The notes beneath the pieces are model-generated. The model was given only the letters and a program-made list of their open reading frames with translations. It had not been told where the DNA came from and did not search any database. Of a stretch of 64,000 bases of DNA, positions 2,945 to 59,181 are shown piece by piece (positions within the stretch are counted from its first letter, which is position 1; every line of letters begins with the position of its first letter). The position numbers and the translations under genes were made by a program. Source of the DNA: Escherichia phage ECML-359; sequence record OL631482.1; one strand, given 5' to 3'.

Positions 2945-2983
2945 GGACTTCTCCTATAAGACGGGAGAATATTCTCCCACATC

Positions 2984-2991
2984 TATTTATA
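2984..2991 (-). promoter_or_regulatory. T4-type late promoter TATAAATA (minus strand), followed by inverted repeat GGGAGAATATTCTCCC
   Basis: Exact octamer on minus strand overlapping the gp39 stop, upstream of small ORF 2792-2944. Confidence 0.5.
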
Positions 2992-4819
2992 GTGTCGCAT
3001 TCATCCAATCTTTACGCTGCTGGGAATCTTTACCGAAGAGCATTTCGAACAGTTCTTTCCAGTTGTCGGGCAATTGAACAACTTCGAATACAGGTTCGAG
3101 CAATACGCGTTTGTACTCAGCATCTTCCAGAGAACCAAGTCCCTTTATATATCTGATAGTATGCTTCGGAAGTTTATCCTTAGCTTCTTCATAATCAGGA
3201 AGAGAATAAAACCATTCTTGTTTATCTTTGAGCTGCGCAATAATAACAGGAGTTTTCACAAAGCGAATTCGTCCTTCATGGAACAGCTCTGGCCAGTTAC
3301 TGAAAAACGCCAATAACGATGGATAGATACTACCGACACCATCCACATCCGCATCTGTCATGATAGCAATGTTTCGGTAATTCATATTCTCGGCCGGTTG
3401 TCCAATCGTTAACCCAGTAATTGCACACACATCAAAGGCTTCGGCGTTCTTCATAACATCAACAGCTTTCAGGCCCCATGTGTTTTTAAACTTACCACGT
3501 AACGGATAAGCACCTTGCAATTCACGGTCGCGAACCTTGATAAATGGCCCGGTTGCAGAATCACCTTCGGTCAGGAACAGAGTCGTTTCCAGCTTATCAT
3601 TGCCCCATTCGTTGGCCTTGATATGCTTTTGCACCTTGGCCTTTGAAGCTTTCTTATTCGCCTTGGTCTCTGCTGCTTTCTCTGCAGCCAATTTACGGGC
3701 TAATGCAGCTTCAACAATCGGCATAATCAGCGGTTCATTTTTCAGAATAGCTTGCGCGATTTTCTTGGCATCAATCTTAATGTGATTTCGAATTTCACCA
3801 GCCGGAGAAGTCAATCGCTCCTTAGTCTGGGAATCAAATCGCATGTTGCTCATATCGCGAATGAACATAAGCATGGTGAGGCATTCCTTAACTCGTGCCT
3901 TTGTCACCTCAATGCCTTTATATTTGCGTTTAATGGCTGGCTGAAGATGTTCACAGATATCATCCATAACACATTCAACGTGGTGTCCACCATTCTTTGT
4001 ATGAATGTTGTTGACATAAGTCAACTGGCGGAAACCATCCGGGCTAGTCGTAAAGGCCATCGATACTGTATCAGTTTCCTGGATAACAACTTCGGTTCCG
4101 AATTGCTTGGCGAACTTCTTGAAATTGCCATCAACCTTTTTACCATTAAAGGTAAACTGAATATCTGGATAAACAACCGCAAGAGTCTGCAGACGGTCCA
4201 ATGTAATATCCAGATAAATCCGGGACAGGCTATTTTCTTCAAAGTGACTGAAGTCCGGAACAAAAATAACAGTTGTACCTTTACCCTTAGATTTCTTGGT
4301 AGACCAACCTTTGTTTTCCATACCATTGGAGCAGTTAACGGTGATTTCATTTGCGCCGTCGGCGGTAATCCCGGTGAACAATACAGAGAAAATATTGGTC
4401 AGAGAAGACCCGACGCCATTCATCCCACCAGTTTTACGTTCAGCATCATCACCGAAGTTACCACCTGCTTTTGGAATAGTCCATGCTGCAACCGGGCCAG
4501 GGATTTGTTCACCGTTTTGGTCTGTAACCATTGCTTGTGGAATACCACGGCCATTATCGGAAACCGAAATCTGATTATCTTTAATTTGGACATCAATTTT
4601 ATTGGCAAATTTAAAACTGGTGCGAATTGCTTCATCAACAGAGTTATCGATAATTTCATCAATCAGTTTTACAATACCAGGAACATAGCTTACGGACTTA
4701 TATTCACCAAACAAGAATCGCTCATGCGCTTCATTTGAACTGGAACCAATATACATCCCGGAACGTTTTTTGATATGCTCGACGTCCGAGAGTACTTTAA
4801 TTTCATTATTAATCATCAT
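2987..4819 (-). CDS. 39: DNA topoisomerase II large subunit (gp39 with gp60-equivalent region fused, 610 aa)
   Basis: GyrB-like ATPase/TOPRIM motifs (GMYIGSS, DNGRGIP); single uninterrupted ORF. Confidence 0.9.
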   Translation of the reverse strand: MMINNEIKVLSDVEHIKKRSGMYIGSSSNEAHERFLFGEYKSVSYVPGIVKLIDEIIDNSVDEAIRTSFKFANKIDVQIKDNQISVSDNGRGIPQAMVTDQNGEQIPGPVAAWTIPKAGGNFGDDAERKTGGMNGVGSSLTNIFSVLFTGITADGANEITVNCSNGMENKGWSTKKSKGKGTTVIFVPDFSHFEENSLSRIYLDITLDRLQTLAVVYPDIQFTFNGKKVDGNFKKFAKQFGTEVVIQETDTVSMAFTTSPDGFRQLTYVNNIHTKNGGHHVECVMDDICEHLQPAIKRKYKGIEVTKARVKECLTMLMFIRDMSNMRFDSQTKERLTSPAGEIRNHIKIDAKKIAQAILKNEPLIMPIVEAALARKLAAEKAAETKANKKASKAKVQKHIKANEWGNDKLETTLFLTEGDSATGPFIKVRDRELQGAYPLRGKFKNTWGLKAVDVMKNAEAFDVCAITGLTIGQPAENMNYRNIAIMTDADVDGVGSIYPSLLAFFSNWPELFHEGRIRFVKTPVIIAQLKDKQEWFYSLPDYEEAKDKLPKHTIRYIKGLGSLEDAEYKRVLLEPVFEVVQLPDNWKELFEMLFGKDSQQRKDWMNATL

Positions 4820-18055: not shown

Positions 18056-18349
18056 TTATTCACCTGTAACCCATTGAACAATTTTGCTATTGTCAAATGA
18101 AGCATCGCAATACAGAACATAGTTATACTGCATAACGTCACCAGAAGTCAATTTGTCAGATACTTCTTTAACCATATCAGGGCGGTCACGTTTAGTTATG
18201 TTCATAATATCAGCATAAATCTGATGTTCAACATCAGTCTGGTCAGCAGTCATAGACCACTCACAAAGGTCTTTATCAAGTCCAGCAGTAACTGGAGCTG
18301 TACCACATGATGCTACGGTAAGAATTGCCGCGATTAATAACTTTTTCAT
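18056..18349 (-). CDS. sp: spackle-like periplasmic protein (97 aa)
   Basis: Signal peptide MKKLLIAAILTVASC; T4 Sp size and 61.3 position. Confidence 0.55.
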   Translation of the reverse strand: MKKLLIAAILTVASCGTAPVTAGLDKDLCEWSMTADQTDVEHQIYADIMNITKRDRPDMVKEVSDKLTSGDVMQYNYVLYCDASFDNSKIVQWVTGE

Positions 18350-22261: not shown

Positions 22262-22765
22262 TTAGTTAATACCTTGACGTGCTTTCTCTTTAGCTACACA
22301 TTTATTAATATAGCTCAGACGGTTTTGAGCAGAACGCTGATACATATCGCGATACTCATTAGCTTTTGGAGAACCAGCCTCTGCTGCCTGATAAGCTTCC
22401 GCGCGCATGATGTTTATCTGCATATTGATGTATGACATGCAGACCTGTGAAATCTGGTTAACAGTATCCAGGTCATTTTGGCGCTTGGTTTCTGCTTCCA
22501 GTTTAGCAATGATTTCGTCATGCTTCGCAGCTTGTTCGCGTTTGTACTCAATTTCACGTTGAGCATATTTCGCGCAGTTATTTCCACATTGATTGTTGTC
22601 ACGTTTGTAGATAAGTCCAGTACCACCTTTGAAATCAAAGGAACCATTATGCACCTGACGGTCTGCAGCAATTCTTGCTTTACCAATCTCACTGGCATTA
22701 ACTACATCACCCTGGTAAGCACAACCGGATAGCAGCATAACAGCTGCGATAGCTAACTTTTTCAT
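22262..22765 (-). CDS. putative lipoprotein (about 167 aa from MKKLAIAAVMLLSGC)
   Basis: Lipobox LSGC; GAGGAA site; occupies the T4 beta-gt/42 slot. Confidence 0.5.
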   Translation of the reverse strand: MKKLAIAAVMLLSGCAYQGDVVNASEIGKARIAADRQVHNGSFDFKGGTGLIYKRDNNQCGNNCAKYAQREIEYKREQAAKHDEIIAKLEAETKRQNDLDTVNQISQVCMSYINMQINIMRAEAYQAAEAGSPKANEYRDMYQRSAQNRLSYINKCVAKEKARQGIN

Positions 22766-22775
22766 TTTATTTTCC

Positions 22776-22919
22776 TCAATTAAAACATTCATAACGGGCT
22801 TGGAGTCCCAAAAATACCCAACCCAAAATTAAAGTTGGAATCATATGCGGAGTCATTATTGCCCAATAGATTGACATACTAAAAAATGCAATCAGTACAA
22901 TAATTGTAATTATCTTCAT
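22776..22919 (-). CDS. small membrane protein (47 aa, imm.1-like)
   Basis: ATGA overlap with imm stop; hydrophobic MKIITIIVLIAFFSMSIYWAIM... Confidence 0.3.
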   Translation of the reverse strand: MKIITIIVLIAFFSMSIYWAIMTPHMIPTLILGWVFLGLQARYECFN

Positions 22920-51728: not shown

Positions 51729-52112
51729 TTACTCTAGTGTTAACAGATACTTAGTCTGAAAGAAAACTCCAACGATATCGTCCAGAGTCGATTGAATAGC
51801 CTTAGGTACAACTTTATAGACTCTTTCCGAGCTTTTAATCATTTCATCTAAAAACAAAATTGTATCTTTCGGCAAGTCCGAGGCGGACGGTAATGCAGCT
51901 TTGTATTGTTTCCCGCTGTAACCTAACCATTGCTCACTGAACTGGTCGAGTGGACCTTGGATTTCTGTGAAGTAGAAATCATAAGCTTTATGGCGGGCGT
52001 AACTTTTGGTTTCAAGATGGGCGGATTTAAAATAAGCCAAAGAGACTAACAACCACCCAATATATGAATCCACCTCAGACCCACGACCCGTTACGAAATC
52101 ATCAAATTTCAT
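51729..52112 (-). CDS. hypothetical protein (127 aa, rI.-1 position)
   Basis: Minus ORF. Confidence 0.4.
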   Translation of the reverse strand: MKFDDFVTGRGSEVDSYIGWLLVSLAYFKSAHLETKSYARHKAYDFYFTEIQGPLDQFSEQWLGYSGKQYKAALPSASDLPKDTILFLDEMIKSSERVYKVVPKAIQSTLDDIVGVFFQTKYLLTLE

Positions 52113-52395
52113 CTTCCAATTTTACCTTCATTAATTTAGCGTATTCGACTGCAGCCGCACGGCCATCAATTTGACATGTGATTTCATTTACACATTGACT
52201 CTTATTGTTCCATTCAGTTTTAATAAAAGCCCAAAATTGTTCGGACTGCTCGACGCTGGGTTCTTTGAATTGCGAATAGATTTGCATCGCACTATCTGCA
52301 TACTGGGTAAATTTACCATCTGTAGCAGAGGACATATTTGGGCCTAAACAGCCCATTAGTAATAGACTTAGAGAAAGTCCTCGAATAAGGTCCAT
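52102..52395 (-). CDS. rI: lysis-inhibition regulator RI (about 97 aa)
   Basis: Signal anchor then ...SEQFWAFIKTEW...CQIDGRAAAVEYAKLMKVKLE resembles T4 RI; AAGGAG site; late promoter upstream. Confidence 0.6.
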   Translation of the reverse strand: MDLIRGLSLSLLLMGCLGPNMSSATDGKFTQYADSAMQIYSQFKEPSVEQSEQFWAFIKTEWNNKSQCVNEITCQIDGRAAAVEYAKLMKVKLEDEI

Positions 52396-52466
52396 AAAGG
52401 ACTCCTTATTGTTGGTCATGATTACGCTTTGCAGCCTTAACATAGCGGAATACTAGTTAGTAACTG

Positions 52467-52474
52467 TATTTATA
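52467..52474 (-). promoter_or_regulatory. late promoter TATAAATA upstream of rI
   Basis: Exact octamer on minus strand. Confidence 0.5.
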
Positions 52475-52745
52475 ATCTTTTAAATTTGAAACAATACATT
52501 GCAAATAAATCAGAAAAATGTCTATCAACCCATATTCTTTGCACTGGACTAGTAACAGTCAGCATATAATGTGATTTTTGTAAATTTATTCCATTTTTAT
52601 TCGGGCATTCTTTATTAACAGAATGGTACGTGCTTGCTACTATTTCAATTTCCCTTTCATATCTCTCGCTATCTGTTTGTGTGGGAATAAATGCAATTCC
52701 AGCAATAACAAAAATAGAGATATACGTCCAAACCTTGTATACCAT
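52470..52745 (-). CDS. membrane-anchored small protein (91 aa, rI.1 position)
   Basis: N-terminal TM helix YISIFVIAGIAFIP. Confidence 0.4.
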   Translation of the reverse strand: MVYKVWTYISIFVIAGIAFIPTQTDSERYEREIEIVASTYHSVNKECPNKNGINLQKSHYMLTVTSPVQRIWVDRHFSDLFAMYCFKFKRL

Positions 52746-52752
52746 GCGAACC

Positions 52753-53325
52753 TCAGCTTGTTAATTCGAGCCAATGTTTTCTGCATAAAGATACGTACGA
52801 TTCATTCCCACCGACTAACACTTGCTCGCCGTCCTTTACAGCAGCACCGTCGATTACTCTCGCGGTCATGGTTGCTTTCCGGCCGCAATGACAGACGCCC
52901 TTTAATTCAACCAGTTTATCCGAAATAGCCAGAAGTCTGGCTGAACCGGGAAATAATTGACCCCGAAAATCTGTTCTTAACCCGTAACACATAACGGGGA
53001 TATTGTAATTATCAACCACTTGAGCTAACTGGTCAATTTGCTCTGGTAACAAAAATTGAGCTTCATCGACCAGGACACAATGGATATCCTTTTGAGACTC
53101 GGCCCATTTATAGAATTCAAACAGGTTCATGTCGGCCGTTACCAGGTTTGCTTCCTGGCTAATACCAATACGTGATTTGATTTCAGATTCCGAGTCCCTA
53201 TTATCAATAACAGGTTTTAGCAAAAGCACACTCATTCCACGCTCTTTATAGGAATAAGCTGCAGTCAGCAATGAAGCTGTTTTGCCTGCATTCATTGCTG
53301 CGTAATGATAAATTAAACTCGCCAT
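52753..53325 (-). CDS. tk: thymidine kinase (190 aa)
   Basis: P-loop NAGKTASLL, Walker B VLVDEAQF, C-terminal zinc motif CHCGRKAT...C. Confidence 0.85.
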   Translation of the reverse strand: MASLIYHYAAMNAGKTASLLTAAYSYKERGMSVLLLKPVIDNRDSESEIKSRIGISQEANLVTADMNLFEFYKWAESQKDIHCVLVDEAQFLLPEQIDQLAQVVDNYNIPVMCYGLRTDFRGQLFPGSARLLAISDKLVELKGVCHCGRKATMTARVIDGAAVKDGEQVLVGGNESYVSLCRKHWLELTS

Positions 53326-53334
53326 ATCACCTTC

Positions 53335-53520
53335 TTAAAGCGTATTCACATAAGCTATTAATTCGTTTTCTTTCGCATCAAATCGATTAGCAAATTCTTC
53401 CTGATGGTCGGCATCTATCGGGCCATATTCATCGTAAAAAGCGTTTGCTTCTGTATGCTCATCCAAAAGCTCATGGATAAGCTCAAACAATCTACTTTTC
53501 TGACTAATACTTAAACTCAT
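53335..53520 (-). CDS. hypothetical protein (61 aa)
   Basis: Minus ORF. Confidence 0.35.
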   Translation of the reverse strand: MSLSISQKSRLFELIHELLDEHTEANAFYDEYGPIDADHQEEFANRFDAKENELIAYVNTL

Positions 53521-53723
53521 TTCGGTTCACCATATCGCACAAATTTAGGATGTTCGCAATAACCAGAATGAAAACCTTCACCCTTATGATTAGAACATCC
53601 TTTATTAGAACAGTACCACCAGTAATCAAATTCACATTCCATTTCGTCGTTGCATAAAGCTGCGATTACTGGCCATTCGCATTTTTCACATTTGGCCGTT
53701 TTAAGAATTCGGGCTTGACTCAT
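53517..53723 (-). CDS. Cys-rich small protein (68 aa)
   Basis: Multiple CxxC-like pairs. Confidence 0.4.
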   Translation of the reverse strand: MSQARILKTAKCEKCEWPVIAALCNDEMECEFDYWWYCSNKGCSNHKGEGFHSGYCEHPKFVRYGEPK

Positions 53724-53882
53724 AATTCAATTCCATCCATAGCCAAAATTCTTTTTCGTTGGGTCTTGAGAGCTTCGTTAGCCCGGTCATAATCTTCTTG
53801 ACTACCGCTAGGCTGTAAAGCCGCTACCTTTTTGGCCAAGTGAATAAGCTTATCCAAGTTTTCAACAATACGTTCTTGTTCT

Positions 53883-54347
53883 TCATTCAGGCTCATAATC
53901 CACCACTATTAAATCAATATCAGGAGTAAACATGTCGATTAATTTAGAAACCTTTTCCCAATCTCCACCTGCAATACCACAACCAATGCGAGGAATGTAA
54001 ATTACCGGTTTAAACAAAAGGGTTTCTGCTTGTAGATTTAATTCTATCATACAGTTTACTAAAGCACCATAATCAAGATTAGGACCTGGTTCATATTGAG
54101 TATACAAATTATAACACATACCAAACCCAGTAGGTTTATGTTTAAAAACAATAGACATATCGCCTAATTTATCACGAGAACCATATTCAGTAGTGGTTTT
54201 ATCTATTTCTAAAACTTTTGGATAAGCCTTCGCCAACTGTCCAGCTACACCAGAACCCATTGTGTGGAAGCAGTTGCAACCATGAGCAATAATATTGCCT
54301 TGAAGAAAGAGGGCGACGATATCGCCCTTAATATACTGGGTAATCAT
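53883..54347 (-). CDS. macro-domain protein (154 aa)
   Basis: GDIVALF...HGCNC...GSGVAG and PRIGCGIAGG match macro-domain phosphate-binding loops. Confidence 0.6.
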   Translation of the reverse strand: MITQYIKGDIVALFLQGNIIAHGCNCFHTMGSGVAGQLAKAYPKVLEIDKTTTEYGSRDKLGDMSIVFKHKPTGFGMCYNLYTQYEPGPNLDYGALVNCMIELNLQAETLLFKPVIYIPRIGCGIAGGDWEKVSKLIDMFTPDIDLIVVDYEPE

Positions 54348-54703
54348 TTAGAGTTCAATCCTCTATTATATGAATCCACTAACCTGTCAACCATACTGGT
54401 GCAGGCCGCCTTATATTTTGCACTTGAAAGAATGCAATCCATTTCAAATAATTTCTTTTCATATTTGTTGGATAATACATTCTTTTTCAAAAGTGTATGT
54501 TCAACATCATTTTGGCCATCTTTATATGCCGCGGTGAGCTTGGCACTGAACTGGATTATACAATCCACATTGCTTGCTGCGCAATAATCTTTAGCCGTCC
54601 TCGTTGCATATTCTATGATGCTGTTGTTGTCGTCGCTCTGTACTGAAGCTATTCCTCCCATGCTGAATACTAACCCTATGGCTAAAGTGATAACTCTTAC
54701 CAT
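54344..54703 (-). CDS. secreted Cys-containing protein (119 aa)
   Basis: Signal peptide MVRVITLAIGLVFSMGGIASV; 4 Cys; coupled to neighbours. Confidence 0.45.
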   Translation of the reverse strand: MVRVITLAIGLVFSMGGIASVQSDDNNSIIEYATRTAKDYCAASNVDCIIQFSAKLTAAYKDGQNDVEHTLLKKNVLSNKYEKKLFEMDCILSSAKYKAACTSMVDRLVDSYNRGLNSK

Positions 54704-54705
54704 TT

Positions 54706-55248
54706 TTAATCCACCGTTTTTAATAGGCCTCGTGATTTTAAGTAGTTAGCTTTTTCTAGGACCTGTGAAGCATACGTATTACCAGCTTTCACATTCCATC
54801 CTGCGTTATATGATGATAGTGTTTTCCTTATATCCCCCTTATGAATATTCAACCAATATGAAAGCTCAATGTAAGCCCAGCGTGCACTGTTCTCTCTCTT
54901 GCTTATCATCTTGATTATTTCTTTATCTGTCATTGTCCACCCAACCTGTTTCACGCGTTCGCGCACGGTTGGAAGATAATTTTGGAATATACCATATGCG
55001 TGATGCTTATCTTTATTTAATCCAGTATTAATCCCAGCAGAACTCTCCTGCCAGGTTAAACCAGCCATGATATATCCCAAACCATTATGTTGGTGCGGAT
55101 TTTCTTTGTACTTACCATTTTTCTGGAACTGTTCTCCAAACGCATAAGCATATTGGAGGTTTTCCATTTGTTCATTACTGAAAGTAGGCTCTACGCTATG
55201 GGCAGACATACTAACTGTCAATAGTAAGGTGGCGATTACTTTTTTCAT
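54706..55248 (-). CDS. secreted SLT-domain lytic transglycosylase-like protein (180 aa)
   Basis: Signal peptide; catalytic ES, GIFQ and YNAG motifs of family-1 lytic transglycosylases. Confidence 0.6.
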   Translation of the reverse strand: MKKVIATLLLTVSMSAHSVEPTFSNEQMENLQYAYAFGEQFQKNGKYKENPHQHNGLGYIMAGLTWQESSAGINTGLNKDKHHAYGIFQNYLPTVRERVKQVGWTMTDKEIIKMISKRENSARWAYIELSYWLNIHKGDIRKTLSSYNAGWNVKAGNTYASQVLEKANYLKSRGLLKTVD

Positions 55249-55258
55249 GAATTCCCCA

Positions 55259-55717
55259 TTAGATATAAATCACTTTTGTGCTAATTTTTCCTTCCAGACG
55301 ATTAGAGTTAACAAACGCCATACGACAACACATGGTCGGAGACTTCCCAGGAATAGCGGGGTTAACTGTCATTCCTAACCACAGGTTCTTGTCTGTAATT
55401 TCCAGACGAAGTGGACGGTAGTTCACATTCGGGTCAATTTGTGCTTCAACTTCCGGGAGTGGTTTCATCTCCAAGAATTCAACGATTTCTTTTACATGTG
55501 GTGTGATTTTTCCAAACAAGTCAAAAACATATTGTTCATCAATTTCACGTTGGATTGCACGGTCCAACAGGTGCGGACTGTACTTAATGAAGAATGCTTC
55601 AAGGCCTGCTTCTTTACAAGCCTTGTTGATAGCATTATTAATTTTGAGGAACTCCGTTTCAAAAATGCGACGAAGTTTATTGCGGCGAATGTAAACACTT
55701 GAATCGATAGTAGTCAT
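55259..55717 (-). CDS. regB: RegB endoribonuclease (about 152 aa from MTTIDSS...)
   Basis: IRRNKLRR...HLLDRAIQREIDE resembles T4 RegB; track N-terminal extension is PeSL. Confidence 0.7.
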   Translation of the reverse strand: MTTIDSSVYIRRNKLRRIFETEFLKINNAINKACKEAGLEAFFIKYSPHLLDRAIQREIDEQYVFDLFGKITPHVKEIVEFLEMKPLPEVEAQIDPNVNYRPLRLEITDKNLWLGMTVNPAIPGKSPTMCCRMAFVNSNRLEGKISTKVIYI

Positions 55718-55773
55718 GATTATCTCCTTTTGTTTGATGGGATAATCATAACTCATTTCAATCTGCTTGTACA

Positions 55774-55775
<2 letters not shown>
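55718..55775 (-). promoter_or_regulatory. PeSL-like early promoter cassette
   Basis: GTGTACA ... ATCCCATCAAACAAAAGGAG. Confidence 0.5.
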
Positions 55776-56353
<578 letters not shown>

Positions 56354-56357
<4 letters not shown>

Positions 56358-56587
56358 TTCACTTCCTCATCAGATGCATTATCATATTCTACCAAACGGA
56401 GGCCATCATATCCGCCACGAACAGAGATATATGTACTCGGATAAACAATTTCTTTACCATTCCATTGGCCACCGTCCCAACATTCCATAAAGCCTTGTTC
56501 GCCCTGTTCGTGGAACCAGTCAACAAACATCTTCAGAGCTTCTTCAGAACCTTCAATAGTCAATTTAGACATATTTTTTCCAGTCAC
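56354..56587 (-). CDS. hypothetical protein (77 aa)
   Basis: Minus ORF. Confidence 0.4.
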
Positions 56588-56864
56588 TAATTAATCGCAC
56601 ATCCTGGTCATAGGTCAGGAGGCTACGAGTTATAATACCCTTACACGGTCCAGAAATAAATTCCAGAGTAAAGTAAGGAACCAACTTCATCAAGCGAATA
56701 CTCGGAGCAGTGCAACGAAATCTGGACCCAATAAAAGGTCCAGACAAAAACACATACTCAAAGAAATTAGCTTTATTAAAGATTTCATAATTCTTTACAA
56801 AATCCTCAGACCGAACCTTTGGAATAAAATAGAGTTGGTCAAAAAGCTCTTCATGGGTCATCAT
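56565..56864 (-). CDS. hypothetical protein (99 aa)
   Basis: Minus ORF. Confidence 0.4.
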   Translation of the reverse strand: MMTHEELFDQLYFIPKVRSEDFVKNYEIFNKANFFEYVFLSGPFIGSRFRCTAPSIRLMKLVPYFTLEFISGPCKGIITRSLLTYDQDVRLISDWKKYV

Positions 56865-57388
56865 TGCATTCCTATCACAAAGAACAGGGGCAGGGGTTTA
56901 GAACCCTGGCACATAAATTTATTCATCATTGTCTGATAAGCTTCATAGAACTTATCCATCGCTGGAAGACGCATTGGCTCTTCAATAATAATCAATAATC
57001 GGGTAACAGACAGCCCACGATACTTGTGAAAATGATCTTCATCTAAAAATGAACGAACAGTATCATATACAACAAAACCAGGTCGTTCAACATTAAGATG
57101 TGGCTGTGCTTTAGAAACCCGCTTTATTATATCACAGATTTCTCGTGAGCGATGCGAAGAACTCGACATAACAATTACATCATTACCCTTAGAAACCCAA
57201 TCCGCAGCGAACTGTGCAATGGCACTTGTTTTACCTGTTTGCCTTCCGCCGTCAAGTCTAAGAGTACCAAACTCTTGCATTCTTGAAGCGGGTTCATACC
57301 AGGTGTATTGGTCTGAATCTAAGCGTTCAATGGCGCGTTCAGCGAAGGCGTGCATTAAGGTTAGATAAATGGGAGTTAAAAATTTCAT
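56861..57388 (-). CDS. small P-loop NTPase-like protein (175 aa)
   Basis: Walker A GGRQTGKTS and Walker B-like LLIIIEE. Confidence 0.45.
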   Translation of the reverse strand: MKFLTPIYLTLMHAFAERAIERLDSDQYTWYEPASRMQEFGTLRLDGGRQTGKTSAIAQFAADWVSKGNDVIVMSSSSHRSREICDIIKRVSKAQPHLNVERPGFVVYDTVRSFLDEDHFHKYRGLSVTRLLIIIEEPMRLPAMDKFYEAYQTMMNKFMCQGSKPLPLFFVIGMQ

Positions 57389-57552
57389 AATTGTCTCTTT
57401 TTAAGTTGTGGGGCCGTTCCTTGGCACATAATTCATCCGTGTATCCGTATGTAAACCCCTTACCGCACTTGGGCTCGACCTTATTACAGGTAGGGAAAGG
57501 TCCATCACTCAGAGGACGCGACGTTCATGAGGAGAGGGCCGGCTTGCCTTTA

Positions 57553-58637: not shown

Positions 58638-58693
58638 GTTTGTTCTCCGTAGTTGATAGGGTCATTATAACCCTATCATTTGGAGATGTACAC
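58638..58693 (-). promoter_or_regulatory. PeSL-like early promoter cassette
   Basis: GTGTACA ... GATAGGGTTATAATGACCCTATC stem-loop ... AACTACGGAGAACAAA. Confidence 0.6.
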
Positions 58694-59181
58694 TAATATG
58701 CGTCAAAAGTTCCGGTACGGAACGTTTCTATAACTCGTTTGGCTCGGTTCGGAGTCTGGACTTTATACCATCTTGAGTCCGCCAGTTCCTTGGCAGCCGC
58801 TTCCCATGATTTAGCCTTCAGTAATCGCATACCCTTAGGAAAACCAGCAACACCAGCAACACCCATCTGGAATACCATATTAATGAGTGCACAACGACGA
58901 ACTTCATCCAGTACATCATAAACAGGTTTTAAGACAGGATGCCTCAAGATTCCGGCTTTAGCCTTTTCGACCGAACGGTTAAACAGTGTTTCGGCTTCGT
59001 GCTGGGTTATACGACCATTACAAACGCGACCCATGAGCTTATCGAGCTCGGCGCGAGCAACATCTTTAGATGGGTTCTTAGTTATCAGTTGCCCGATGCC
59101 AATGGTCCAATAGCCTTCAGTATCTTTATACAAATCCAACTTACAACCTTCATCTATACGTAACATTTCGAATATATTCAT
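58693..59181 (-). CDS. e: lysozyme e (endolysin, 162 aa)
   Basis: [12 protein letters not shown]...[13 protein letters not shown]...[12 protein letters not shown] matches T4 lysozyme including catalytic E11/D20. Confidence 0.9.

Follow-up and report, generated by a model that had tools for sequence, protein, structure and literature searches.

Phage vs.1 and vs genes as a predicted exported pair: an SLT-type transglycosylase fold and its tightly linked, putative four-cysteine partner

Two adjacent genes of Escherichia phage ECML-359 (OL631482.1) probably encode an exported SLT-type transglycosylase and a dedicated, co-translated and likewise exported partner, acting together in the periplasm. 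They are the counterparts, in this phage, of vs.1 and vs, genes long known from T4. Both genes and the SLT similarity of vs.1 were already known; what is added here is the strict linkage of Vs.1 to Vs, together with a predicted location of Vs that conflicts with its annotation. Among the roles conceivable for the partner, restraint or direction of Vs.1 is tentatively favoured. T4-like phages are among the best-studied viruses, and relatives of vs.1 are present in ~2000 phage genomes. If the pair is periplasmic, remodelling of host murein by T4-type phages would begin early in infection and would rely on an enzyme distinct from the endolysin as well as from the tail lysozyme. The widely propagated annotation of Vs (about a thousand phage records) would then need correcting, and the minimal-medium phenotype of vs would gain a concrete alternative explanation.

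The locus was analysed within a 64,000-nucleotide stretch of phage DNA (the window). ORF listing over 52–58 kb returned the vs.1 orthologue as a 180-aa ORF at 54706..55248 (minus strand) and the vs orthologue as a 119-aa ORF directly downstream at 54344..54703 (minus strand), the two consecutive reading frames given in a preliminary description of this DNA. The vs.1 stop codon (TAA, 54706–54708) and the vs start codon (ATG, 54701–54703) are separated by 2 nt. As read from the sequence, this TAA-AA-ATG junction (54701..54708, minus strand) is compatible with translational coupling. At its other end, vs shares nucleotides with the following gene, its stop codon overlapping the next start codon in ATGA (54344–54347). 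The surrounding block is tightly packed and runs in one direction, comprising regB (Pfam REGB_T4, E 3e-72), vs.1, vs, a macro-domain gene, three small ORFs, thymidine kinase and the rI antiholin gene. A promoter and terminator scan of positions 52000–57500 gave no excess of sites over shuffled controls.

Over 2 kb, the region shares 99% identity with the Escherichia phages EAWsc9, TH55 and UPEC07 (Straboviridae, Tevenvirinae, Gaprivervirus), in which the pair is annotated as an SLT-domain protein and Vs. The 180-aa protein matched phrog_600 (E 2e-67), a PHROGs entry without assigned function, and the 119-aa protein matched phrog_1256, 'valyl tRNA synthetase modifier' (E 1.3e-32); an NCBIfam search produced no usable match for either. 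The same positions in T4 are occupied by vs.1 and vs, and the comparison with these genes that had been proposed earlier identified them as direct orthologues, with protein identities of 65% for Vs.1 and ~45% for Vs. T4 Vs.1 (the '20.7 kDa protein in vs-regB intergenic region') and T4 Vs are encoded in the same order, regB-vs.1-vs-tk.4, and have the same signal peptides and four cysteines as the window pair. The 2-nt spacer of the window is an 8-nt overlap in T4, with otherwise no difference of substance. The regB-vs.1-vs-tk.4 region is transcribed early in T4, and T4 Vs has been characterised by 1970s biochemistry only.

Vs.1 contains the motifs WQE68S69S, G86-I-F-Q89 and S146-Y-N-A-G150. These include the ES, GIFQ and YNAG elements (E68S69, G86-I-F-Q89 and Y147-N-A-G150) from which a lytic transglycosylase had first been proposed. 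The codon of Glu68, the predicted catalytic acid of the ES motif, was read from the sequence at 55045..55047 (minus strand). Against Pfam SLT (PF01464) the window protein scored 14.4 bits (E 0.029) relative to a curated cut-off of 21.3 bits, so that its sequence evidence taken alone is marginal. Nolan et al. 2006 (PMC1524935) likewise described a marginal SLT match of vs.1 that was present in each of six T4-like phages, and several GenBank records already bear the label 'SLT domain-containing protein'. Among 42 Vs.1 relatives, 41 matched Pfam SLT at E ≤ 0.1, the best at 1.3e-7. An AlphaFold2 model built from the 42 sequences (pLDDT 88.5, with an N-terminal helix of low pLDDT) has the predicted lysozyme-like, α-helical GH23 fold. 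Searches of PDB sequences, by single sequence or by profile, returned nothing matching Vs.1.

Conservation was evaluated over 67 unique Vs.1 relatives spanning 31–100% identity, the FelixO1-like members being only 31% identical. Invariant residues were E68, S69, G86, F88, Q89, N90, Y147, N148 and G150, with Glu68 kept in 67/67. Alignment by hhalign placed WQE68SS of Vs.1 on RQE505SAW of E. coli Slt70 and GIFQ on GLMQ, with a weak score (E 0.21). E505 of the Slt70 precursor is presumably the catalytic E478 (Glu478) of the mature enzyme. Vs.1 thus combines a putative catalytic Glu in an E-S motif with G-L-M-Q-like and A-Y-N-x-G-like motifs. The 67 sequences hold no second conserved acidic residue after the FQ motif, which suggests a transglycosylase rather than a g-type lysozyme. 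N90, E128 and W132 are invariants specific to the family. Together, the predicted fold, the intact catalytic Glu and the Pfam matches support placement of Vs.1, at the family level, in the SLT/lytic-transglycosylase fold, in line with the original assignment. Relative to the family-1 lytic transglycosylases (Slt70, MltC, MltD, MltE and MltF; PF01464, GH23), Vs.1 is a minimal single domain of ~162 residues that lacks both a lipid anchor and accessory domains, with marginal sequence similarity (E 0.029). Experiments on the activity of Vs.1 or the localisation of Vs.1 or Vs were not found in the literature.

Signal peptides were called with a simple n/h/c-region heuristic on 42 Vs.1 and 28 Vs relatives. 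The Vs.1 N-terminus, MKKVIATLLLTVSMSAHS/VEPTF, has a predicted Sec signal peptide with a putative cleavage site after residue 18 (residues 1–18, MKKVIATLLLTVSMSAHS/V; 55195..55248, minus strand), and the Vs N-terminus, MVRVITLAIGLVFSMGGIAS/VQSDD, one with a putative site after residue 20 (residues 1–20, MVRVITLAIGLVFSMGGIAS/V; 54644..54703, minus strand). Nearly all relatives of both sets (42 for Vs.1, 28 for Vs) have a basic n-region, an uncharged h-region of 10–18 residues and a small-residue −3/−1 site. Since this architecture is kept while the residues themselves vary, real signal peptides are to be expected, as the preliminary description had held for both proteins. T4 Vs starts with MTKILVLCIGLISFSASASA/DTSY. 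The Vs orthologue of the Enterobacter phage CC31 branch starts with MKKLFVLLVVFALSGC/K, a lipoprotein lipobox (ALSGC/K). Of the window's 133 non-overlapping ORFs, only ~7, Spackle among them, passed a comparable filter. Sec export of both Vs.1 and Vs is therefore a supported prediction of the heuristic. Binding to valyl-tRNA synthetase (ValRS) presupposes a cytoplasmic Vs, which is at odds with its four invariant cysteines and with its predicted signal peptide or lipobox; the database label 'valyl-tRNA synthetase modifier' accordingly conflicts with the location predicted for the protein.

A reading of Vs.1 as a SAR endolysin was considered and rejected. Its hydrophobic core is too short (~11–13 residues) and is followed by an A-H-S/V type site, and the gene lies in the regB-tk block, outside any lysis cassette.

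Vs has exactly four cysteines (C41, C48, C90 and C101). In its AlphaFold2 model (pLDDT 77), four helices span residues 24–40, 46–69, 74–90 and 95–116, the loop between the first two helices being flanked by C41 and C48 and the third loop by C90 and C101. The four cysteines, together with G63 and G115, are the only invariant columns in a broad Vs alignment covering 19–60% identity. From this restricted conservation we infer a disulfide-stabilised, extracytoplasmic protein in which the four cysteines would form two structural disulfides. The C-x5-6-C and C-x8-10-C spacing on helix ends, together with the signal peptide or lipobox, makes a zinc finger less likely.

By sequence, Vs belongs to the family defined by PF26829 and phrog_1256. 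PF26829 was found in all detectable Vs relatives, all of them from T4-like phage contigs. Foldseek of the Vs model against the PDB gave no significant match (best E 1.2), with generic helical bundles only, and PDB sequence searches with Vs, single or by profile, gave none. When the Vs family was aligned by hhalign with the window's Spackle and RI, signal peptides alone aligned. A Spackle- or RI-like fold for Vs is thus unsupported, the PDB hits by Foldseek being generic bundles at E>1. Across PDB Foldseek, PDB sequences and hhalign, Vs showed no sequence or fold similarity to the known lysozyme or transglycosylase inhibitors Spackle, Ivy, MliC/PliC, PliG and PliI.

Linkage of the two genes was assessed in 79 IMG/VR loci encoding a Vs.1 relative. 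A Vs-family gene starts −8 to +7 nt from the vs.1 stop in 51 of them. A profile-detected Vs gene was present in 48 (start −8 to +3 nt); three further loci, missed by the narrow Vs profile and recovered by a broader one, encode at the Vs position a ~110-aa signal-peptide protein with the same cysteine pattern. The reverse search found vs.1 directly upstream in all 27 vs loci, and Vs without Vs.1 was never seen among these. Adjacency alone is weak evidence, with a chance expectation of ~0.2 adjacent pairs. The pair goes beyond chance in that the same order and tight abutment recur in 51 of the 79 related loci. This synteny (51/79; 27/27) strengthens the early suggestion that the small protein is a partner of the enzyme.

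The 28 loci without Vs belong to FelixO1-like phages and four Aeromonas phages. Vs.1 is also found on its own, in FelixO1-like and Vi1-like phages and in some Aeromonas phages, and so does not depend on Vs. Vs.1 of FelixO1-like loci has two cysteines (24/24); partnered Vs.1 has none (49/51). In database records, vs.1 was found in ~2072 phages and a close vs in ~807, with Vs-family genes numbering roughly 800–1000; Vs relatives turned up in T4-like phages only. Vs.1-specific patterns detected no relative in 185,579 bacterial and archaeal genomes, and a prophage or plasmid origin of Vs.1 is unsupported at this pattern-search sensitivity.

Solo Vs.1 homologues carry signal peptides too, as at 3001–3549 of locus L003 (FelixO1), in loci L060–L084 and at 2953–3570 of locus L004 (Det7). 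In FelixO1-like loci, vs.1 is followed by a gene whose 231-aa product contains a HAD-like DIDGVLT motif. In Aeromonas T4-like phages without Vs, another exported protein, of ~140–146 aa, is encoded a few hundred bases downstream of vs.1 (L057, 3856–4296; L061, 4031–4471; L059, 4378–4800), two of these with a lipobox (MYGC and IYGC). This protein might be an analogue of Vs.

In the mechanism that we propose, Vs.1 would be synthesised behind a cleavable Sec signal peptide and set free in the periplasm, to act there as a single-domain family-1 (GH23, SLT-type) lytic transglycosylase, with Glu68 as the acid/base that cuts the MurNAc-GlcNAc bond of murein. Vs would be translated from the same message right after Vs.1 and would also be exported; in the CC31 branch it would be a lipoprotein, in most phages a soluble protein. 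Folded as a four-helix bundle with two putative stabilising disulfides, Vs would serve as the dedicated periplasmic partner of Vs.1. In the preferred version, Vs restrains or directs Vs.1, such that murein could be remodelled without premature lysis.

Published functional data bear on the direction of any such regulation. In a T4 Tn-seq study (bioRxiv 10.1101/2025.11.20.689424), both vs and vs.1 were non-essential on LB. Mean reads per site in the LB control were 26.6 for vs and 22.6 for vs.1, compared with 130–770 for flanking non-essential genes, and only these two genes in their neighbourhood were ~10-fold low in LB insertion reads. In M9 glucose, vs was the most depleted T4 gene (log2 −2.19, adjusted p ~0), and a clean deletion confirmed the effect, plaquing poorly on M9 glucose specifically; the preprint authors view the defect as a nutrient or translation effect. 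For vs.1, depletion in M9 was log2 −0.87 (p 0.0055, adjusted 0.155), and on a clinical E. coli strain its insertions were depleted at log2 −1.20 (adjusted p 0.015) in the same study. The two genes thus behaved alike and unlike their neighbours, perhaps in part because vs.1 insertions have polar effects on vs. That losing vs is costlier than losing vs.1 argues against Vs as a mere activator of Vs.1; Vs could instead have a restraining role or a function independent of Vs.1.

A bolder version of the proposal is possible, if doubtful. Vs would be a periplasmic, disulfide-bonded and in some phages lipid-anchored regulator of Vs.1, and no cytoplasmic translation factor. The ValRS link would come from a mis-assigned vs locus or from an association arising only after cell breakage, and the minimal-medium defect of vs would be an envelope effect of unrestrained or mis-directed Vs.1.

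The annotation could instead be taken at face value, with Vs a cytoplasmic ValRS-binding polypeptide, Vs.1 an independent exported transglycosylase, and their adjacency mere conserved synteny in a packed early region. We regard this, the main rival, as rather unlikely. Classical biochemistry and genetics tied vs function to cytoplasmic ValRS, and the genetic interaction between vs and valS keeps this reading alive. The purified ValRS-bound factor was reportedly ~10 kDa; if so, this size would fit a processed, and so exported, T4 Vs, with a mature mass of 11.0 kDa and a precursor mass of 13.1 kDa. The M9 results favour the cytoplasmic reading, both the specific plaquing defect of the clean vs deletion and a depletion of vs (−2.19) greater than that of vs.1 (−0.87), which points to an effect beyond simply activating Vs.1, as does the presence of Vs.1 without Vs in other phage groups. 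PMC8076793 assigns ValRS modification to the vs locus, citing Muller & Marchin 1975 and 1977. The same article reports that N-terminally His-tagged full-length T4 Vs was insoluble in the cytoplasm and formed inclusion bodies (PMC8076793), which weighs against a cytoplasmic protein. Every Vs relative moreover carries an N-terminal export signal, in one branch a lipobox, and the basic n-region should leave the protein body facing the periplasm. The invariant set of four cysteines and two glycines is typical of disulfide-stabilised extracytoplasmic proteins. Simple synteny would also have to account for linkage in 27/27 and 51/51 cases at near-zero spacing, where other neighbours vary. A tie of the sequenced ORF to the genetic vs locus was not found in the accessible literature, and several other ~10-kDa ORFs lie near vs.

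An accessory lysis or superinfection device, close to roles raised in the preliminary description, is unlikely. Here, Vs.1 would weaken murein for lysis timing or help to seal or exclude at the envelope, and Vs would hold it in check as Spackle blocks the gp5 tail lysozyme. The periplasmic location predicted for both proteins is consistent with such a device, and T4-like phages already use the periplasmic lysozyme inhibitor Spackle, encoded here at 18056..18349. The rI antiholin gene (52102..52443) lies in the neighbourhood, the FelixO1 Vs.1 homologue directly follows rIIA-rIIB, and the depletion of vs.1 insertions on the clinical strain points the same way. Vs has, however, no homology to Spackle or RI beyond the signal peptide, and the pair sits in the regB-tk block, away from t, rI and e. 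The phage does encode a separate T4 e-type lysozyme, as had been stated, at 58693..59181 (minus strand). T4 e mutants do not lyse, and Vs.1 therefore cannot replace the endolysin. Data on lysis timing or exclusion in vs or vs.1 mutants were not found in the literature.

It is very improbable that Vs.1 is a murein-binding, catalytically inactive lysozyme-fold protein in a structural or sensing pair: the weak Pfam SLT score of the window protein, the lack of a sequence match to any solved transglycosylase and a literature in which activity data were not found would fit this, but Glu-Ser, G-x-FQN and SYNAG are invariant in 67 unique sequences of 31–100% identity, a pattern of a conserved active site that aligns with the ES-motif Glu of Slt70.

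The preferred reading, an exported transglycosylase with a dedicated partner, was compared with known systems. EtgA with EscI of the type III system combines a specialised small transglycosylase with a helical partner. A secretion apparatus is involved there and none for Vs.1 and Vs, and Vs is unrelated in sequence to EscI. Vs likewise has no detectable similarity to Ivy, MliC/PliC, PliG, T4 Spackle or the T6SS muramidase-immunity pair Tse3-Tsi3. Unlike such inhibitor and immunity pairs, Vs.1 and Vs both have signal peptides and both come from the same phage.

Several neighbouring features of the window were also recorded. Directly downstream of vs, positions 53883–54347 (minus strand) encode a 154-aa macro-domain protein (Pfam Macro, E 5.6e-8), the orthologue of tk.4; T4 Tk.4 has been named AdfM, an anti-DarTG2 factor (2025 preprint). 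Upstream, the mechanically called regB ORF (55259–55774, minus strand) starts at GTG and is 171 aa long. Its annotated length in UPEC07 is 165 aa and its Pfam match runs from residue 23, and the true start is probably an internal ATG. Between tk and rI, a 91-aa ORF (52470–52745, minus strand; phrog_6298, without assigned function) has an N-terminal hydrophobic anchor, MVYKVWTYISIFVIAGIAFI, and its product looks like a membrane protein beside the antiholin gene. Further away, an internal start in the ORF at 22262–22792 (minus strand; phrog_1754, without assigned function) gives MKKLAIAAVMLLSGC/A, a lipoprotein lipobox from which another exported phage protein is predicted. This ORF had a weak, sub-threshold NCBIfam match to 'putative T6SS immunity periplasmic lipoprotein' (E 0.0085).

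The GenBank annotation of UPEC07 (MW250787.1; locus L001) contains evident propagation errors over the whole 8-kb stretch. Several small, unrelated ORFs bear the labels 'endoribonuclease', 'valyl-tRNA synthetase modifier', 'pyrimidine dimer DNA glycosylase', 'MobD' and 'internal head protein', and other records label vs outright as 'valyl-tRNA synthetase'.
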